NCBI GenBank assembly: GCA_964526025.1
Contig: CAZGLJ010000001.1
Coordinates: forward strand, 1 to 34,773
Direction: 5' to 3'
DNA from: an uncultured Candidatus Saccharibacteria bacterium
GTDB taxonomy: Bacteria; Patescibacteriota; Minisyncoccia; Minisyncoccales; Staskawiczbacteraceae
DNA: 34,773 nucleotides
The notes beneath the pieces were generated by a model that worked only from the letters and a program-made list of their open reading frames with translations, was not told where the DNA came from and made no database searches. Each line of letters begins with the position of its first letter. Position 1 is the first letter of the stretch. Positions 8,096-31,084 of this stretch are shown here, in pieces. The position numbers were made by a program, and so were the translations under genes.

Positions 8096-9169
8096 TTAAT
8101 CTGTGCAAGTTAAATGAGCAACCGAGCCAGCGGTCAAAGTCATTGTTCCTGTATACGATGCCCCTACATGTGTTGGCGGAAATTTGGAAATATCAATAGA
8201 GAAATCCATTTCATCTAATTCTGACAAATCCAATGGGTCATTTAGGGTTTTTGTTACTTCTGGAGAGTAATTCGCATACGAAGCAGCGCTTCCAACTCTG
8301 GCATCATATTTTACATTCCAGTTTCCGTCGGTTTTTCCCAAGCCCATGTCATCTTGCCAGACCCTCATTGCTAATCTTGTATTGCCAACGTTCCTCACAG
8401 AAGCAGGACCTTGATTCATAGGGCTCCATGTTTTATCACCGCTAATGATTTTATGAGTATTTAATCTAACATTGCCATAAACGACTTGGTTAAAGTCTGT
8501 TTCAAAAGCAGTCAAAGGAAGATAGGTAAAATGATTTCTCAATGTACCCTGCAAGCCATTATTGTCTTGCGCTACTGCCCAAACTTCATAGTCGCCAGAC
8601 GGATCTTCGTAAGAAATATCTTTTTGTCCGCAATAAACAGCTGCTGTATCTTTTTGTAATTCGCCTGTTTCTCCGCAGATTTCATCGTAGTTGTAACCTG
8701 TGTTGAAAGTTGGCAAATTATGATTTTGATTTCTTACGCTATCGCAGAAAAGCGCTATGCCTTCTGCTTTGGTTAGCCTTCTCAAGCTGTCTTCTTGCAT
8801 AAGTCCACCGCAGCCCTCTCCGCTTTGATCTGGCAATGCCACATGGCTAGCTCCTAAATCTACGTCCACCGGATAAAAAACGTCTGCATAAACAGCATTA
8901 ATATCCGCTAATCCATCTGGATCAGTTACCACAGCGCACATAGCAATGGTTTTGTTCTGGTCTTTCACGCCTGACGGCCTAAATTGAGCGCCAGCAGAAG
9001 TGGAATCATCAGTGTATCTGTCAACGTTTGCCTCCCACTTAGCTTTTACAATTGGGTTAGCTCCTCCACTGGTGTCTTGTGTTAAGCCGGTATTTATGGT
9101 GTCAGCTACAGCTAAGTTTGGTCCAGCAACCAAAGCAATCAACGCTAATATCGCAATTATTTTTTTCAT
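8096..9169 (-). CDS. Secreted hypothetical protein (357 aa), first gene of the surface-protein cluster
   Basis: Signal peptide MKKIIAILALIALVAGPNLAVA/DT. Long uninterrupted ORF with several Cys pairs. I recognise no family. Confidence 0.6.
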   Translation of the reverse strand: MKKIIAILALIALVAGPNLAVADTINTGLTQDTSGGANPIVKAKWEANVDRYTDDSTSAGAQFRPSGVKDQNKTIAMCAVVTDPDGLADINAVYADVFYPVDVDLGASHVALPDQSGEGCGGLMQEDSLRRLTKAEGIALFCDSVRNQNHNLPTFNTGYNYDEICGETGELQKDTAAVYCGQKDISYEDPSGDYEVWAVAQDNNGLQGTLRNHFTYLPLTAFETDFNQVVYGNVRLNTHKIISGDKTWSPMNQGPASVRNVGNTRLAMRVWQDDMGLGKTDGNWNVKYDARVGSAASYANYSPEVTKTLNDPLDLSELDEMDFSIDISKFPPTHVGASYTGTMTLTAGSVAHLTCTD

Positions 9170-16102: not shown

Positions 16103-16372
16103 ATGTTTATGGCAACAATAAAGAAAAAAATCTGGCCAGAGTATTTTGAACTTGTGTCTTCGGGCAAAAAGAAGTTCGAATTACGCTTGGCAGATTTTGA
16201 TGTTAATGAAGGCGACTTCCTAATTTTGGAGGAGTGGGATCCTAAGTCCAAAGAATACACCGGCAGGACAATTGAGAAAAAGGTAAGTTTCCTGCTAAAA
16301 TTTAAGCTCGATGACTTCGGCCAAGAGCAAGAAATTAAAGAAAAGGGTTTATTTGTAATTCAACTGGATTAG
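16103..16372 (+). CDS. DUF3850 / ASCH-like (PUA-fold) small protein
   Basis: KIWPEYFELVSSGKKKFELRLADFDVNEGDFLILEEWD...YTGR matches the DUF3850 pattern (PEYFE..SGKK.FE.R..D.....GD.L.L.E). Confidence 0.7.
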   Translation: MFMATIKKKIWPEYFELVSSGKKKFELRLADFDVNEGDFLILEEWDPKSKEYTGRTIEKKVSFLLKFKLDDFGQEQEIKEKGLFVIQLD

Positions 16373-16408
16373 ATCTGAATTTAAGATTAAACATCGTTTT
16401 TAATAATT

Positions 16409-16468
16409 TACCGGGAACTTTCCTTCCAGCATATCCACGGCTGCGTCCAGCTCGTAGGATTTCCAGCC
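16409..16468 (-). repeat. Copy 1 of a 60-nt direct repeat; on the minus strand it encodes GWKSYELDAAVDMLEGKFPV plus a nearby stop (orphan gene 3' end)
   Basis: Ungapped alignment with 17283-17342 shows 54/60 identical nt. All 6 differences are synonymous in the minus-strand frame. That frame is closed 4 codons upstream by TAA. Confidence 0.85.
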
Positions 16469-16470
16469 AA

Positions 16471-16498
16471 TTGCTAAAACTTAAAAATCTGTTAGTAT
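16471..16498 (+). promoter_or_regulatory. Possible promoter of the orphan sigma gene (TTGCTA-16 nt-TAGTAT)
   Basis: Hexamers at 16471-16476 and 16493-16498. Strong SD AAGGAGA 6 nt before the ATG at 16540. Confidence 0.3.
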
Positions 16499-16539
16499 GC
16501 AGATACATGTTTTAGTGTACATTAACAAGGAGAACCACA

Positions 16540-17238
16540 ATGCCACACAAGACAGAAAAGCGAAACAAGAAGGTAAGAACCCTCGTCCAGCTTTATCTTG
16601 ACGGCGTTGGAGAAACGCCGTTATTGAGTTTTGACGAGGAAGTGGAACTTGCAAAAAGAATTGAGGATGGCGATAGCGAAGCGCGACAATACCTCATCAA
16701 AGCAAATCTTCGCCTGGTAGTCTCAATCGCAAAAAGGTATGTCGGCAAGTCATTGAACCTCACGCTGTTAGGCTTAATTCAAGAAGGAAATCTGGGGCTT
16801 ATCCGTGCAGTTGAAAGGTTTGATTGGCGGATGGGCAACCGATTTGCTACATACGCAACCTCTTGTATCGAAGGCACAATTAAGCGGGCTTTATTCTGCG
16901 ACAGGCGTGGTGCAATCGCTGATTTTTCTCTGGACGACCAAATCGGCGACGAAGATAGCGATAATATGCATGGATTCATCGGAGACGAGAAGGCCACTTG
17001 TCCCAGCGCTCAGGCAAATAAGACTTCGTTGCAAGTAATTTTTGACGAAGTCCTCTCTGAACTGGAAAAGAAAGAGCAACAAATAATAAGACTGGCCTTT
17101 GGGTTGTCGGACGGAGTTGCTCACAGTGACAAAGAGATTGCCGAGAAACTCGAAACTAAAAAGGAAAGAGTCCGCCAAATCAGAGAGAAAGCATTGAGGC
17201 GACTCAAAAATCATCAACGGCTAATAAAGCTGAAATAA
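16540..17238 (+). CDS. Sigma-70-family paralog, 232 aa: regions 1.2, 2.1-2.2 and 4 are RpoD-like; region 2.3 is degenerate; regions 2.4 to 3.1 are absent
   Basis: I aligned it by eye to the rpoD in this window. [53 protein letters not shown] aligns with [53 protein letters not shown]. After that [11 protein letters not shown] replaces [20 protein letters not shown] and about 70 aa of region 3 are missing. Region 4 ([16 protein letters not shown]) is intact. Confidence 0.8.
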
Positions 17239-17248
17239 CTTCGGCTAA

Positions 17249-17272
17249 CCTACACAATTTGTGTGGGTTTTT
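17249..17272 (+). terminator. Terminator after the sigma paralog
   Basis: cctacac-aattt-gtgtggg (one G:U pair) followed by ttttt. Confidence 0.55.
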
Positions 17273-17282
17273 ATTTGCAGTC

Positions 17283-17342
17283 AACGGGAAACTTTCCTTC
17301 CAGCATATCCACGGCGGCGTCCAATTCGTAGGATTTCCAGCC
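17283..17342 (-). repeat. Copy 2 of the 60-nt direct repeat (orphan gene 3' end; about 38 codons stay open upstream)
   Basis: The minus strand reads ...WLRAARELRTVILSGWKSYELDAAVDMLEGKFPVDCK*. There is no start codon. Confidence 0.85.
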
Positions 17343-17450
17343 GCTCAAGATTACGGTTCGAAGTTCACGCGCCGCTCGGAGCCATTAAAAACCGCCTAAA
17401 AGGCGATTTTTTGGTATAATAAAAGAGTAATTATTTATCCCAATAAATTT

Positions 17451-17969
17451 ATGAACAAAATAATTTTAATCGTCGTTATTATCCCGATTGTCTTAGCCGC
17501 TATATTTATGTGGCAGAATGAAGATATTTTAAAATTGGCAAACAGCTACTTAAATAATAACAACACAGATAACAACACAACAATATCAAAAAACAAAATT
17601 TTAAATTTAAGCAATCAAGGGCTAAAAAGTATTCCTTCTTATGTTTTTAATCAAACAAGCTTAGAAGAACTTAACGTTTCTAATAATTATCTGACTGGAG
17701 CTATTCAGGCGGAAATAAGACATTTAAGTAATTTAAAAATCCTAAATGCTAGTAATAATTTAATGACTGGGGTGCCAGCCGAGATTGGCCAGCTGCAAAA
17801 TTTAGAAATTCTTGACTTATCAAATAATCAACTTACTGGTCTGCCCAATGAATTAGGGAATCTTAAAAAATTAAAGATTTTTAATTTATCTGGCAATCAA
17901 TATTCCCAGCAAGACCTTGATTATATCAGGAATAAACTTCCTTCAACCGTAAATATAATTATAAATTAG
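17451..17969 (+). CDS. Membrane-anchored leucine-rich-repeat (LRR) protein
   Basis: N-terminal TM helix IILIVVIIPIVLAAIFMW, an N/T-rich linker, then about five 23-24-aa LRRs (L..L..L.LS.N.LTG.P.EIG.L). Confidence 0.8.
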   Translation: MNKIILIVVIIPIVLAAIFMWQNEDILKLANSYLNNNNTDNNTTISKNKILNLSNQGLKSIPSYVFNQTSLEELNVSNNYLTGAIQAEIRHLSNLKILNASNNLMTGVPAEIGQLQNLEILDLSNNQLTGLPNELGNLKKLKIFNLSGNQYSQQDLDYIRNKLPSTVNIIIN

Positions 17970-17985
17970 AATATCTTTTTTTTGC

Positions 17986-18014
17986 TTGACACGGGTCAGA
18001 TTAAATGTTATCAT
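17986..18014 (+). promoter_or_regulatory. Promoter of the cold-shock gene (TTGACA-17 nt-TATCAT), giving a ~70-nt leader
   Basis: -35 at 17986-17991 and -10 at 18009-18014. Long 5' UTRs are typical of csp genes. Confidence 0.4.
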
Positions 18015-18084
18015 TATAATACTTGTAAGAGACGGGGTCGGGTTTCTATTAAAAATTAAAGACAAGGTAAAAATAATCAAAAAA

Positions 18085-18285
18085 ATGACAGGAACTATCA
18101 AGACGCTTATGGAAAAAGGATTTGGGTTTATTGCTCGCGAGGGCGAAACAAAGGATCTTTTTTTCCATTCCAACGATTTGAATGGCGTATCATTCACTGA
18201 CCTTAAAGTTGGTGATAATGTTACTTTTGATGTAGTCGAGGGCGAGAAAGGCCCGAGCGCAAAAAACGTAACACGCGCAGAATAA
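18085..18285 (+). CDS. Cold-shock protein (CspA family)
   Basis: MTGTIKTLMEKGFGFIAREGETKDLFFHSNDL... with RNP1 KGFGFI and an RNP2-like LFFH. The ORF-track start at 17986 is an upstream in-frame artefact. Confidence 0.9.
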   Translation: MTGTIKTLMEKGFGFIAREGETKDLFFHSNDLNGVSFTDLKVGDNVTFDVVEGEKGPSAKNVTRAE

Positions 18286-18294
18286 TCGAAAAAT

Positions 18295-18331
18295 CAAAAA
18301 ACCATCCCGCTAAGCGGGATGGTTTTTTTTT
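18295..18331 (+). terminator. Rho-independent terminator of csp
   Basis: aaaaaa-accatcccgc-taa-gcgggatggt-ttttttttt. Confidence 0.85.
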
Positions 18332-18369
18332 GCGCTTGATTTTTTATGGTAATTGTTGTATCATAAATT

Positions 18370-18627
18370 ATGGCCATGATTAACAAAGAACAATTTTTAT
18401 TAGAGCATAACAAACTTTCTCCGCCAAACCTGCAAGCCACTTTAAGTTTGCTTACGCGATTCAAAGAAGAAAAAAGGCCTCTTTTAAAAGATGACGGCTG
18501 GTCTGTAGACAAACTTAGAATCCCGCTTATCTCGTGGCTTATTGCCTTGCCATTAGTAGGAAAAAGGAAAGGCAAAAAAACAGGAGGAAAACAAACATTT
18601 AAAAATTATCCCGAAACAAAATCTTAA
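18370..18627 (+). CDS. Hypothetical 85-aa protein
   Basis: ORF bracketed by two terminators. One hydrophobic segment (LISWLIALPLV) and a basic tail. No family recognised, and coding status is uncertain. Confidence 0.35.
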   Translation: MAMINKEQFLLEHNKLSPPNLQATLSLLTRFKEEKRPLLKDDGWSVDKLRIPLISWLIALPLVGKRKGKKTGGKQTFKNYPETKS

Positions 18628-18644
18628 TCCCTTAATCTTAAAAT

Positions 18645-18675
18645 TAAAAAAGTCCCGCTTAGCGGGACTTTTTTA
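18645..18675. terminator. Bidirectional terminator between convergent genes
   Basis: aaaaaa-gtcccgc-tta-gcgggac-tttttt. Confidence 0.8.
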
Positions 18676-18692
18676 ATTTTAAGATTTCATTT

Positions 18693-20339
18693 TTATCTCA
18701 AACTATAAAGCGCTTTGGCTATTACATAAAGCACTGAACCTAAAAATGATTCTGGGTTTAAAAATGAACTTGGCGGAGGCGGCGGAGGAGGATTTTCGCT
18801 TGGAGCCGGTTCTTGAGTCGGCTGCTCTTGTGGCAACTGTTGCGGTTGAAGCTGGAATTGCTCTTGAAACTGCTGGGATTGTTCTTGGAGCTGGCGCTGA
18901 TACTCTTGCTCATATTGTTGCTGGAACTGTTCTTGAAATTGTTGGTTTTCAGGCGGAGGAGGAGCAGATTGGCAGTTTTCACCTTCGCATGGCTGGCTTT
19001 GAGAAGGGCTTTGCTGTAAATTCTGGCAATCTTGAGGATTGGATTCGCAATATGCTCTACACTCATCGGGCCCCTTGCAGCCTCCTGGACCGGATTGTTC
19101 AGGCATCATTTGGTCACCTGGGTTTATAGCTCCAGGTCCTGGCTGGAAATTTTGATTCTCTTGGCCAGGCGGAGGACCCATTTTTTGAAAACATTCCTGC
19201 ATTTTATCGCCAATATCTCTTGGGGGCATAACGCCGCTCTTCATTTTTTCAACCATATCTGCTCCCACTTTTTCTTGAAGGCAATCTATTACTTCTTGGG
19301 GCGCTTGCTGCAACGATTGCTGTAATTGCTGCTTGCCCTGTTCCATTCTTTGCAAATCTTCTTCTGGTATCAACCCATGTTCTTTGGCAAAATTAAAACA
19401 GGTTTCCTGATTGTCTGGATTGTTGCAAAATGCTTCGCATTCTTCTTTGCCCTTGCAATCGCCGGGGCCCTTGCCGCCTGTTTTACGAACCATTAACGCA
19501 TCTTCTTCTGACATAAAGCCGGCGGCTACGGCAAAATTCATGCATTCTGCAAGGTGTTCTTCCTGTCCGCAATAAACATCGCAATCTTCTCTTCCTTTGC
19601 AAGGAGGCGGTTTTATTCCTTTTCTCAGCGCTTCTAACATTTTTTGAGAATCAGCCTTTTCCTCCTCTGACATAAACCCGGCTTCCATAGCAAAATTCAT
19701 ACAAACTTCCATATTGTCAGGACTTGAGCAGTATTCATCGCAAGCTTCTCTGCCTCGGCACGGAGGCGGTTTTACGCCTCTTTTAACAGCTTCCAGCATT
19801 TTTTGGGCATCTTCTGCCTCTTTGCCCTGAATAAAACCAGCTTCAATGCCAAAGGCAATGCATTCTTCCATGTGCTCAGGGGTTTCGCAATAAACATCGC
19901 AGGCCCTTTTGTTGCCGCAGGCAGGCGGATTGACGCCCCTTCTAATAGCTGACTGAACTTTTTTAGCTTCTTGGAGCTCTTCTGGCGGTATTAAATCATT
20001 CTTTTCAGCAAAAGAAATACACTCATCAATATTGCCCATATCGTTGCAGTATGTTTCGCAAGCATCTTTACCCTCGCAATTACCAGGTCCCTTGCCGCCT
20101 GCAGACAAAAATTTTCTCGCCATATCTATCTCCTCATCAGACATAAGATTATTTTCCTGGGCAAAATCCAAACAGGCGCTTAGGTTATCTGGCTTGTCGC
20201 AATAAGACCTGCAGTCTGCTTCATCTTTGCAATTGCCCAATTCTGCAACAGGGTATTGAATATCGTCAGCTCCTATAGCAGCTGAACCAATTATTAAAAA
20301 GCCTAAAAGAATACAAATAACAAAATATTTTGTTTTCAT
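18693..20339 (-). CDS. Secreted repeat protein: six full ~50-aa C-x5-C-x3-C-x8-C modules plus a seventh module with shorter last-Cys spacing (x6), then a Q/E-rich and poly-Pro tail
   Basis: Signal peptide MKTKYFVICILLGFLIIGSAAIGA. Example modules: CKDEADCRSYCDKPDNLSAC, CEGKDACETYCNDMGNIDEC, CGNKRACDVYCETPEHMEEC, CRGREACDEYCSSPDNMEVC, CKGREDCDVYCGQEEHLAEC, CKGKEECEAFCNNPDNQETC. Each is followed by an acidic helix (F/LA.E.G(F/L)...EE). The tail reads QQFQEQFQQQYEQEYQRQLQEQSQQFQEQFQ...PPPPPPP. Confidence 0.75.
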   Translation of the reverse strand: MKTKYFVICILLGFLIIGSAAIGADDIQYPVAELGNCKDEADCRSYCDKPDNLSACLDFAQENNLMSDEEIDMARKFLSAGGKGPGNCEGKDACETYCNDMGNIDECISFAEKNDLIPPEELQEAKKVQSAIRRGVNPPACGNKRACDVYCETPEHMEECIAFGIEAGFIQGKEAEDAQKMLEAVKRGVKPPPCRGREACDEYCSSPDNMEVCMNFAMEAGFMSEEEKADSQKMLEALRKGIKPPPCKGREDCDVYCGQEEHLAECMNFAVAAGFMSEEDALMVRKTGGKGPGDCKGKEECEAFCNNPDNQETCFNFAKEHGLIPEEDLQRMEQGKQQLQQSLQQAPQEVIDCLQEKVGADMVEKMKSGVMPPRDIGDKMQECFQKMGPPPGQENQNFQPGPGAINPGDQMMPEQSGPGGCKGPDECRAYCESNPQDCQNLQQSPSQSQPCEGENCQSAPPPPENQQFQEQFQQQYEQEYQRQLQEQSQQFQEQFQLQPQQLPQEQPTQEPAPSENPPPPPPPSSFLNPESFLGSVLYVIAKALYSLR

Positions 20340-20343
20340 AGTT

Positions 20344-20598
20344 TTAAAATGGGTTAGTTTTAATGTCTTTAAAAGGATTGGCTTTGTCAGCTGGGTTGAT
20401 ATCCGGCTTATCCTCTAATGGGTTTGTTTGCAAAGACGGCAGAACGCCCCTTGTTGCGCTGTTAGTTATATCTTCGGCTGTATTTTCTAAAGCGTTCCAT
20501 GATTTAGATTTTTTAAAATATAAATATCCTCCTATAACTAAAATAATCAATAGGACAGCCGCAAGCGACGATATTATTATAATTGTTTTTTTATCCAT
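20344..20598 (-). CDS. Small single-pass membrane protein (84 aa)
   Basis: N-terminal TM helix IIIISSLAAVLLIILVIGGYLYF and a C-terminal NP(F/L)-containing tail. Its stop codon is 4 nt upstream of the start of the Cys-module gene, so they are probably co-transcribed. Confidence 0.5.
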   Translation of the reverse strand: MDKKTIIIISSLAAVLLIILVIGGYLYFKKSKSWNALENTAEDITNSATRGVLPSLQTNPLEDKPDINPADKANPFKDIKTNPF

Positions 20599-20698
20599 AG
20601 CTTATTCTTTTTTAATATTTTTGCGATTATTATATATTAACAAATATCGGACAAGGTTTCGTATAGCGCGCAGTGGATAACTTAAAAAAAACAATGGG

Positions 20699-21061
20699 CT
20701 ATTTCAGCCCCATTTTTTCTTTTACTCTGGCAACAATATCGTCAATATGCAGTTCGGATTTTATAAGATAGTCAAACTCTTTATTGTTTTTATCTCCGTT
20801 TTCAACGTTAGTCAAAAACATAATGGGAGCTTGTATTTTCAATTCCCTTATTTTTTTTGCCACTGCCTGGCCATCTAATCTCGGCAACAAGATATCTGAA
20901 ATAATTAAATCCGGCTTTTCCTTCTCGGCTGCAGAAACGCCGCTTTCTCCGTCCTCGGCTATTATAACAGAAAATCCTTCAGAGCTAAAAACTTTTTCTA
21001 AAATTGAAAGGAAATTTTTATCGTCCTCTATTATTAATATTTTTTTGTTAGTCTTTTGCAT
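20699..21061 (-). CDS. Stand-alone response-regulator receiver domain (CheY-like)
   Basis: KILIIEDD, phospho-acceptor context PDLIISDILLPRLDG, and MFLT. No output domain, and no histidine kinase in the window. Confidence 0.85.
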   Translation of the reverse strand: MQKTNKKILIIEDDKNFLSILEKVFSSEGFSVIIAEDGESGVSAAEKEKPDLIISDILLPRLDGQAVAKKIRELKIQAPIMFLTNVENGDKNNKEFDYLIKSELHIDDIVARVKEKMGLK

Positions 21062-29896: not shown

Positions 29897-31084
29897 TTAG
29901 TAGTAGTCTTTTATTTTTTTTAGCTCTCTGTGCTTTCGTAATTTTTCAAGGGCTTTGGCCTGAATTTGGCGGATTCTTTCTCTTGTTACGCCGAACTCCT
30001 CGCCGGTTTCTTCTAATGTGTGCATTACCCCATCGTCTAAGCCGAATCTCATTCCTAAAATTTTTAATTCTCTGGGAGTTAATTCGCTCGATAATTCTTT
30101 TAACCTGTCTTTTAAAAGTTTTCTTGCAGCCTCTGTGTTCGGCGCTATTGTTTTGTCGTCTTTAATGAATTCGGCTAAAACGCTGTCCTGCTTGTCTTTG
30201 TCTTCTCCAACCGGAGTCTCCAATGAAACTGCTTTTTGAGCAATTTTTCTTATATGATGGACTTTATCAACCTCCAAGCCCATCTCAGCTGCAATTTCTT
30301 CAGCTAACGGCTCGCGGCCTAATTCCTGCAAAAGGTTTTTCCTGATTTTTGTGTACTTGGAAATAGTTTCTATCATATGGACCGGGATTCTAATGGTCCT
30401 TGCCTGGTCAGCTAAAGCCCTGGTAATTGACTGGCGAATCCACCATGTAGCGTAAGTTGAAAATTTATATCCCTTTCTCCAATCAAATTTTTTAACTGCC
30501 TTAAAAAGCCCCAAGTTTCCTTCCTGTATTAAATCTAATAAAGTCAGGTTAGGAGAGCGTCCAACATATTTTTTAGCAATAGAAACGACCAATCTCAAGT
30601 TTGCTAAAGCTAATTTATTTTTTGCCTCTTCGTCTCCAGCTTCAATTCTTTTTGCCAATTCTTTTTCTTCTTTTGCTGACAGAAAACTGGACTTGCCAAT
30701 CTCCTTTAAATACATCTGTATAGGGTCGATTTTGCCTATCAAAGCTTTTCTGCCTCTCTTTTCTTTTTTAGGTTTTGTTTCTAGAAATTCCTGCATTTCC
30801 TTAATTTGTATGCCTTTATCCTTGAAATTGTCATAAATTTTTTCTAGCCCTTCAATGTCTCTCTCTATATTCGGAAAAGCATACAAAATTTCTGAGGCTG
30901 TAATAAAGCCCCTCTCTTCGCCCTTCTTTAAAAGAGCTTGCATCTGCCCTTCATCTATAAAAGATTTTTTCGCCCTTCTTTTGTTCTTCGCTTTCGAAGC
31001 TTTTTTCCTTCGCCTCGCCGAAGCCAAATGGCGAAGGCGGGTTTGTCCTCTTTTTTTTGCCTTTTTTGTTTTTTTCTTTTTCAT
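29897..31084 (-). CDS. rpoD: Primary RNA polymerase sigma factor RpoD, with a Lys/Arg-rich N-terminal tail
   Basis: Regions 1.1, 1.2, 2 ([13 protein letters not shown]), 3 (RTIRIPVHM...) and 4 ([24 protein letters not shown]) are all present. It follows dnaG, as in the classic dnaG-rpoD operon. Confidence 0.95.

Follow-up and report, generated by a model that had tools for sequence, protein, structure and literature searches.

A conserved sigma factor gene without a sigma-3 domain on an inserted cassette in a groundwater member of the Patescibacteria

SigE and SigK of Bacillus subtilis are working sigma factors in which Pfam detects only regions 2 and 4, separated by 48 residues, though conventional tables list them as group 3 proteins with sigma-2, sigma-3 and sigma-4 domains. 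In group 1 and group 2 sigma factors a tryptophan dyad wedges into the −12/−11 junction, and substitutions of the dyad in primary sigma factors severely reduce activity (10.1101/534826). The melting residues are not conserved in group 3. Sigma factors of the extracytoplasmic function (ECF) type possess neither the dyad nor sigma-3, and they depend for activity on a sigma-2/sigma-4 linker that takes the same course as region 3.2 (10.1101/534826). Here we describe a 232-residue protein of the sigma-70 type, referred to as the short sigma, which is encoded by an intact open reading frame (ORF; positions 16540–17238, plus strand) in a 34,773-nt stretch of DNA, the window, from contig CAZGLJ010000001.1 of a tiny groundwater bacterium. 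An earlier note on this DNA had described the gene as an orphan RpoD paralog which has lost the promoter-melting dyad and all of region 3. The short sigma is a conserved gene under strong purifying selection and not a decaying orphan. Our analysis places it in a rare, undescribed, RpoD-derived clade of sigma-3-less proteins of the Patescibacteria and indicates that it most likely works like SigE and SigK or the ECF factors.

Pfam assigned regions 1.2, 2 and 4 to the short sigma without region 3 (Table 1), a check with profile hidden Markov models that bore out the earlier observation. Sigma70_r3 was not detected by Pfam, PF04539 scoring no more than 12 bits, and at an unrelated position. No match to PF03979 was obtained either, and region 1.1 is thus missing; the protein begins 15 residues before region 1.2. 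BLASTP aligned it with the window RpoD at 39% identity (E = 4e-56), with a gap at region 3. The segment from RAL to SLE comprises 62 residues in RpoD versus 11 in the short sigma, giving a net loss of 51 residues instead of the about 70 first estimated. The earlier claim that all of region 3 is gone holds for the sigma-3 domain (regions 3.0–3.1) but not for region 3.2, which is retained, as the same note's own text had said: the alignment resumes at the acidic 3.2-like stretch in BLASTP, in the multiple alignment and with the solved SigA chains. Regions 2.2 and 4 are indeed kept. The core-binding motif LIQEGNLGL is the same as in RpoD and the helix-turn-helix domain PF04545 scores 39 bits. In addition, region 2 contains KSLNLTLL, an insertion of the type seen in the candidate phyla radiation (CPR). 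The residues that read the −35 element are also retained, E-R-V-R-Q in the short sigma versus E-R-I-R-Q in RpoD.

The loss of the Trp dyad was likewise borne out. The WWIRQ of RpoD is replaced by SCIEG, so that S-C occupies the position of W433/W434, with E in place of R436 and G in place of Q437. In the alignment the tyrosine equivalent to E. coli Y430 and the neighboring pocket residues are still present. Residue numbers of the Y430 type are presumed here, with the dyad as their anchor. The dyad itself is numbered as in 10.1101/534826. An AlphaFold2 model built on the family alignment showed confident helical domains at residues 15–122 and 158–223 joined by a disordered linker at 122–164, as is expected of a free sigma factor, and its fold matches were SigA and SigS chains.

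The best profile and structure matches of the short sigma were found in group 1, RpoD/SigA (PDB SigA chains, E = 1e-46). It resembles the Patescibacterial RpoDs in having region 1.2, the identical LIQEGNLGL and a further identical stretch of 11 residues, the S-x-NLTLL insertion and a homologous 3.2 finger. It differs from them in the absence of region 1.1, sigma-3 and the WW dyad, in the replacement of R436 and Q437, in the long stem that separates it in the tree, and in being dispensable and non-housekeeping. Ranking by NCBIfam gave RpoD first (199 bits), then RpoS and actinobacterial SigB, with RpoH, SigK, SigE and the ECF model far lower at about 93–110 bits. The RpoD score is nevertheless below the cut-off of 572 bits of the RpoD equivalog NF006666. 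The model TIGR02937 was non-discriminating, as the window RpoD passes it too.

In a tree with 76 RpoDs the short-sigma family formed a clade with full support and a long stem. It stands outside the RpoD clade of the host order, and a recent copy of the host rpoD was rejected on this ground. A two-residue insertion in the region 2.1–2.2 loop (G-K/R-S-x-N-L-T-L-L) is common to the short sigma and the CPR-type RpoDs; the shorter GRGMLFL form occurs in Firmicute RpoDs and in all solved SigA chains. A second tree was calculated with the region 3 columns dropped and with the root on SigE/SigK. All of the sigma-3-less proteins, including the divergent L104 described below, fell into one clade (Shimodaira–Hasegawa-like approximate likelihood ratio test, 97), which was sister to the CPR RpoDs in a group supported at 99 that excludes the Firmicute RpoDs; both trees were quick, and their branches are long. 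The derivation from RpoD proposed earlier can therefore be narrowed to the Patescibacterial type, from the common insertion and the tree. One member of the sigma-3-less clade, P0137, retains WWIRQSISRAL. Taken with the clade tree, the simplest history is that a Patescibacterial RpoD paralog lost sigma-3 once and the dyad later. On the sequences and trees, the short sigma descends from a Patescibacterial RpoD minus region 1.1 and sigma-3, its dyad having been replaced afterwards within the sigma-3-less clade.

Among the RpoDs in the trees, P0065 is labelled as a 'Campylobacterales bacterium' and was found to carry the CPR-type insertion, as S-x-H-L-S-F-L, and to nest among CPR RpoDs. The contig behind it is probably mis-binned.

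The overall architecture and length of the short sigma are those of B. subtilis SigE and SigK. The spacer between r2 and r4 is 48 residues there and 50 here. The proteins align colinearly, with C-I-E at the positions of W434-I-R436 (CIENEI there, CIEGTI here) and the SigE/SigK stretch ATYASRCIENEI facing a 12-residue stretch of the short sigma. In all of them region 2.4 runs directly into a 3.2 segment of the V-S-x-D-x-P/I-x-G type. However, identity is about 25%, and the short sigma lacks both the pro-sequence and the LISIGTIGL core-binding variant of SigE and SigK. Region 1.2 is detected by Pfam in the short sigma but not in SigE/SigK. The scores of the short sigma lie below the cut-offs of both equivalogs (TIGR02846, 104.6 versus 298.65; TIGR02835, 92.7 versus 348.6), and membership of the SigE/SigK family was rejected from these scores and the position in the tree. 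The low identity and the separation in the tree mark the resemblance as convergence. The SigE and SigK sequences used here were checked: they score above the NCBIfam equivalog cut-offs, and residues 17–239 of SigE are the sequence given in PMC10141391. Group 3 is defined by the presence of sigma-2, sigma-3 and sigma-4; the short sigma is without sigma-3.

With the ECF factors, such as Mycobacterium tuberculosis SigH and E. coli SigE, the short sigma has in common the build of sigma-2, linker and sigma-4, the absence of the Trp dyad and an expected stringency of promoter recognition (10.1101/534826). ECF linkers show no sequence similarity to the SigA linker (10.1101/534826), whereas the finger of the short sigma is clearly homologous to that of RpoD. 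Unlike the ECF factors, it has region 1.2 (48 bits), and its region 4 is Sigma70_r4, r4_2 reaching only 12.9 bits versus a cut-off of 25.7. There is no adjoining anti-sigma gene, a frequent though not invariable companion of ECF factors, and the tree places the short sigma with the CPR RpoDs. Across the six loci neither a conserved neighbor nor an anti-sigma gene was found.

Relatives with the same sigma-3 deletion exist, in line with the suggestion that other genomes be searched for them. A homology search yielded ten at 65–93% identity, nine of full length (229–242 residues) and one a fragment of 173 residues, all of them without r3; the next matches, at about 43% identity, were RpoDs of full length. 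When 1.84 billion representatives were searched with a profile, a cluster of six members at 64% identity came to light, together with about ten more sigma-3-less proteins in a single stretch, 207–263 residues long and 44–50% identical. The reading frame is intact in all homologs. Pairwise ratios of nonsynonymous to synonymous substitution (dN/dS) were 0.03–0.09 among the six members for which DNA was available, with synonymous sites mostly saturated, and were lowest (about 0.04) in regions 1.2–2. The possibility raised earlier of a unique decaying pseudogene is not what was found, since the homologs are conserved and under purifying selection. Invariant positions in the close family comprise the core-binding stretch, residue 105-A-T (the Y430 equivalent), C109, and R212, E216 and L219–L222 of the 4.2 helix. 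At the dyad the first residue varies among S, P, W, H and Y, and the second is C throughout. Recognition helices of region 4.2 are fixed within subfamilies and different between them, as is expected of specificity determinants.

A genome from the same family as the window also encodes L104 (G002:C8:14500-16000), a very divergent sigma-3-less clade member of 268 residues and 31% identity. Its dyad position is occupied by W-C, and some 35 residues are inserted between its regions 1.2 and 2.1. In the whole window genome (0.6 Mb, about 90% complete) the search found two sigma genes only, rpoD and the short sigma. Different second sigma factors occur in other relatives, some group-2-like with region 3 (L103, L106) and some short and ECF-like (L107, L108). 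Peptide-pattern scans of the GTDB species genomes gave only sigma factors of Planctomycetes (278 residues, YW dyad and region 3), which are irrelevant here. An odd gene range of 742 nt on identical contigs proved to be a different gene call only, the DNA being identical.

The short sigma is likely to be a functional two-domain alternative sigma factor, made up of region 1.2 with sigma-2, the 3.2 linker and sigma-4. Region 2.2 is predicted to dock on the clamp helices of the β′ subunit and region 4 on the β flap, while the acidic 3.2 finger would thread the active-site cleft, as in RpoD and ECF sigma factors. Region 4.2, in which ERVRQ is retained, would read a TTGACA-like −35 element. The changes of R436 to E and Q437 to G predict an altered −10 readout; the remodelled region 2.3–2.4 may read a −10 element other than that of RpoD and open it less readily, which would make the choice of promoters stringent. 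Because sigma-3 is absent, the short sigma should be unable to use the TG contacts of an extended −10. That it cannot melt DNA, as was argued before, does not follow: SigE and SigK have the same build and C-I-E, and the Y430-equivalent tyrosine is retained. As SigE and SigK (no Pfam r3, C-I-E) and the ECF factors (no dyad, no sigma-3) are active, loss of the dyad need not abolish melting. Among the three options of the earlier note, a decoy, an ECF-like factor with its own −10 logic and a factor encoded by a mobile element, the evidence favors the second.

The description of a stand-alone gene with its own expression signals, including an intact ORF and a strong Shine–Dalgarno sequence, was upheld. 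Five homologous loci share one unit, consisting of the −35 hexamer, a 16-nt spacer with the extended −10, the Shine–Dalgarno AAGGAGA with the coding sequence (CDS), and the terminator; homology ends outside it. The promoter, called plausible at the outset, matches TTGACA/TATAAT at only 8 of 12 positions, which is why the consensus scan did not list it; in its favor, it is conserved in the five homologous loci with a TG extended −10. The predicted terminator was found by the scan, and its stem pairing is kept by compensatory changes. Region 3.0 is the part of a sigma factor that reads the TG of an extended −10; the PVHMIET motif needed for this is present in the window RpoD and absent from the short sigma. 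The conserved TG and the presence of this motif in RpoD only suggest that the gene is probably transcribed by the RpoD holoenzyme rather than by its own product.

Contig L125 (Ga0247841_10007006) provides an empty site. It is colinear with positions 12008–16468 of the window at 85.5% identity and continues directly with the equivalent of 17284–17411. Its gene order is that of the window (DUF523 fragment, radical SAM, B3_4, methyltransferase, CYTH, ASCH), followed by one complete copy of a dispersed element and a terminator, with no sigma gene. The window thus holds an insertion of 874 nt, namely the 815-nt cassette and a 59-nt duplication of the first part of the resident element. Homology of the cassette to a second locus, L024, spans exactly 16471–17279, at 90.7%. 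The contigs that bear homologs share other DNA with the window genome at 80–87% identity and hence come from related organisms; cassette identity is 75–91%, and the cassette stands at a different place in each. We conclude from these comparisons that it is an accessory cassette which has undergone exchange or rearrangement inside a host lineage, with a structure such as a Campbell-type single crossover would give. The gene travels as a promoter-to-terminator unit, which some close relatives carry and others lack. The GC content of all family members is 44–48%.

Table 1. Coordinates of the sigma cassette, its flanks and the RpoD comparator in the window
Feature	Position	Strand	Evidence
Left copy of 59-nt direct repeat	16410..16468	.	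92% identity to 17284-17342; after the ASCH gene, abuts the cassette
Inserted sigma cassette, 815 nt (promoter, Shine–Dalgarno, CDS, terminator)	16469..17283	+	Absent from L125; flanking genes differ in every homologous locus
−35-like hexamer TTGCTA	16471..16476	+	TTGCTA, TTGACA or TTTACT in homologous loci
Extended −10 TGTTAGTAT (TGn + TAGTAT), 16-nt spacer	16490..16498	+	TGTTAGTAT, TGTTAGTGT or TGTTAATAT at four more loci
Shine–Dalgarno AAGGAGAA, 5 nt before ATG	16527..16534	+	Sequence; conserved in homologous loci
CDS, sigma-3-less sigma factor	16540..17238	+	ORF intact; Pfam, BLASTP, alignment; dN/dS 0.03-0.09
Region 1.2, residues 16-46	16585..16677	+	Pfam PF00140 Sigma70_r1_2, 48 bits vs cut-off 22
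Region 2, residues 52-120	16693..16899	+	Pfam PF04542 Sigma70_r2, 57 bits vs cut-off 24
S108-C109 codons at W433/W434 dyad position	16861..16866	+	Alignments with RpoD, homologs and SigA chains
Junction, residues 120-128 (CDRRGAIAD), in place of sigma-3 domain	16897..16923	+	Alignment: 11 residues vs 62 in RpoD
Region 3.2-like acidic linker / sigma finger, residues 129-165	16924..17034	+	Aligns with region 3.2 of window RpoD and solved SigA chains
Region 4, residues 171-223, recognition helix KKERVRQI	17050..17208	+	Pfam PF04545 Sigma70_r4, 39 bits vs cut-off 24.1
Intrinsic terminator of cassette (stem 17247-17269 + T-run)	17247..17279	+	Scan; compensatory changes in five loci
Right, complete copy of dispersed element	17284..17392	.	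First 59 nt = direct repeat
Second terminator, of element and original ASCH 3′ end	17393..17411	+	Scan; same arrangement in 15 metagenome loci
Housekeeping rpoD, 395 residues, comparator	29897..31084	-	Pfam r1.1, r1.2, r2, r3 and r4 all present

Several observations weigh against a functional sigma factor. With the wedge residues gone, melting may be weak, and the core-binding position equivalent to D403 is G throughout the family. The gene is rare and dispensable, being absent from all 60 relatives, including G001 of the same genus, and from all 400 sampled genomes of the phylum. Its GC content at third codon positions (GC3) is 0.47 versus 0.335 ± 0.053 in the host (95th percentile 0.41). The study's only RNA runs, which are tiny (2–3 million letters), contain none of the sequence. 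No target promoter or regulon was found, the genome counts of TGnTAGTRT and TGnTATAAT being not above a rough expectation.

It is unlikely that the protein is a decoy or competitor which binds core RNA polymerase and perhaps the −35 element but cannot open DNA, acting as a brake on RpoD transcription, for example in dormancy. A decoy would be compatible with the absence of the dyad and the freedom of its first position to vary, with the retained core-binding region 2.2 and finger, with a gene apparently under an RpoD-type promoter, and with the severe effect of dyad substitutions in primary sigma factors (10.1101/534826). The strong conservation of the DNA-contacting helices disfavors it: the equivalents of Y430, T429, F427 and F419 and the 4.2 helix are under as much constraint as the surfaces that bind core, and the recognition helices diversify between subfamilies and are fixed within them. 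Moreover, SigE, SigK and the ECF factors, with the same substitutions and no sigma-3, are active. To our knowledge there is no precedent for a sigma-shaped decoy. The activity of these same proteins without sigma-3, and the lack of any neighboring gene conserved across the six loci, make a split sigma factor highly improbable. In such a system, comparable to the two-subunit SigO–RsoA, a separate partner would supply sigma-3-like contacts to a protein that is otherwise RpoD-like, and small unannotated ORFs do lie near the gene in some loci.

Another reading, which we regard as very unlikely, is that the cassette belongs to a phage, plasmid or integrative element, as a remnant or a module, and that its sigma factor redirects the host polymerase to the genes of that element. 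The insertion with its 59-nt flanking duplication, the different position in each related genome, the GC3 above the 95th percentile of the host and the patchy distribution would all fit, and the empty site shows that a small inserted cassette is involved. A link to phages or plasmids, however, did not emerge. No mobility, phage or plasmid genes adjoin the cassette in any of the six loci and no co-transferred target genes were found. A phage collection and IMG/VR returned only ordinary longer r3-bearing sigma factors, at most 50% identical overall, so that a phage origin was rejected; a plasmid collection was not searched. The divergence of the cassette (75–91% identity) tracks that of the flanks (80–87%), fitting long residence in one host lineage. 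Decay into a functionless paralog is barely credible. It would explain why close relatives dispense with the gene, but all homolog frames are intact, dN/dS is low at saturated dS, and promoter and terminator are conserved.

As a functional alternative sigma factor, the short sigma would be of interest in the CPR/Patescibacteria, which have very small genomes and few regulators; a literature search found no paper describing their sigma factors. The clade shows that a primary sigma factor can be reduced to region 1.2, sigma-2, finger and sigma-4, yet stay under strong selection. With one member still bearing the Trp dyad, the clade offers a natural series for the roles of sigma-3 and the dyad in promoter opening, and it represents an independent route to the two-domain design of the ECF factors and SigE/SigK. 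As the only alternative sigma factor found in a 0.6-Mb genome, the short sigma would probably control the organism's one global switch, its regulon. In addition, the cassette with its identifiable empty site is a clean single-gene gain in a lineage without obvious mobile-element machinery.

The dispersed element flanking the cassette is about 110–130 nt long. Two copies are present in the window genome, two in G001, one in L024, and others in 16 Joint Genome Institute metagenome loci. Its recorded sites are 16410-16468 and 17284-17411 in the window, L075:2219-2300 and 8570-8621, L024:2635-2771, and L109–L128. It nearly always stands between the stop codon of unrelated genes and an intrinsic terminator, on many groundwater CPR contigs. 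The antisense strand has an open frame of 33–36 codons, LRAVRELRTILMNGWKSYELDAAVDMLDGKMPLNY*, which contains LRAVRELRT and GWKSYELDAAVDML. The ratio of nonsynonymous to synonymous polymorphism (pN/pS) of this frame is 0.23 versus 0.4–4.1 in the other five frames. In none of the copies does it have a start codon or open into a longer ORF.

None of the candidate identities examined for the element was retained. A full gene was rejected: the peptide has no full-length genome copy and no Pfam match, and four long ORFs matching the pattern were unrelated proteins. A known or structured RNA was rejected in the absence of an Rfam match and with almost no covariation. Inspection showed that differences between copies are not adenine-specific, against a template/variable repeat pair of a diversity-generating retroelement. 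Nor was the element taken for the attC of an integron or for an att site at a tRNA or tmRNA gene, as no obvious palindromes were seen by eye and neither kind of gene occurs at the sites. An att-type site, formed by the displaced 3′ end of a gene, would call for a full-length gene ending in ...GWKSYELDAAVDMLEGKFPV.

A bolder proposal can be made, which is possible if doubtful: the sigma-3-less clade may be an unrecognized minimal sigma class specific to the Patescibacteria, of single RpoD origin and convergent with the build of SigE/SigK and the ECF factors, whose self-contained cassettes spread among related ultra-small bacteria and integrate Campbell-style into the widespread, conserved ~110-nt element between stop codons and terminators, and which would serve as a plug-in switch acquired by DNA uptake.

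The neighborhood of the cassette varies in related genomes. In G001, comparison of L075 (G001:C6:160500-175500) with window 15536-20700 showed CYTH, a 52-nt fragment of the element and then a gene for a Cys-rich repeat protein; the ASCH, sigma, leucine-rich repeat (LRR) protein and cold-shock genes are not found at the cassette site. In run X1, one of those that contain the full window sequence, a contig joins 16097 to 16414, indicating that an ASCH-less variant co-occurs. Upstream, window 12015-15461 comprises a 5′-truncated DUF523 (2-thiouracil desulfurase) gene followed by a radical SAM, B3/4-domain and methyltransferase module, which is GC-richer (GC3 0.40–0.47; genome mean, 0.335). In L024 the sigma cassette is followed immediately by a full-length DUF523 gene with 87% DNA identity, so the DUF523 and sigma genes were probably neighbors before rearrangement.

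Downstream, the LRR protein gene (17451-17969) is preceded, within 17411-17450, by a perfect extended −10 (TGGTATAAT) that directly follows the terminator of the element. The string TTTTTTGGTATAA also follows the cassette terminator in L024. A leader-like intergenic element of about 130 nt, with no Rfam match, is 82% identical between L064:1423-1549 and genome contig C2:21435-21573. In L064 it precedes a ferric-reductase-like gene, and in the window genome a gene for a 177-residue protein.

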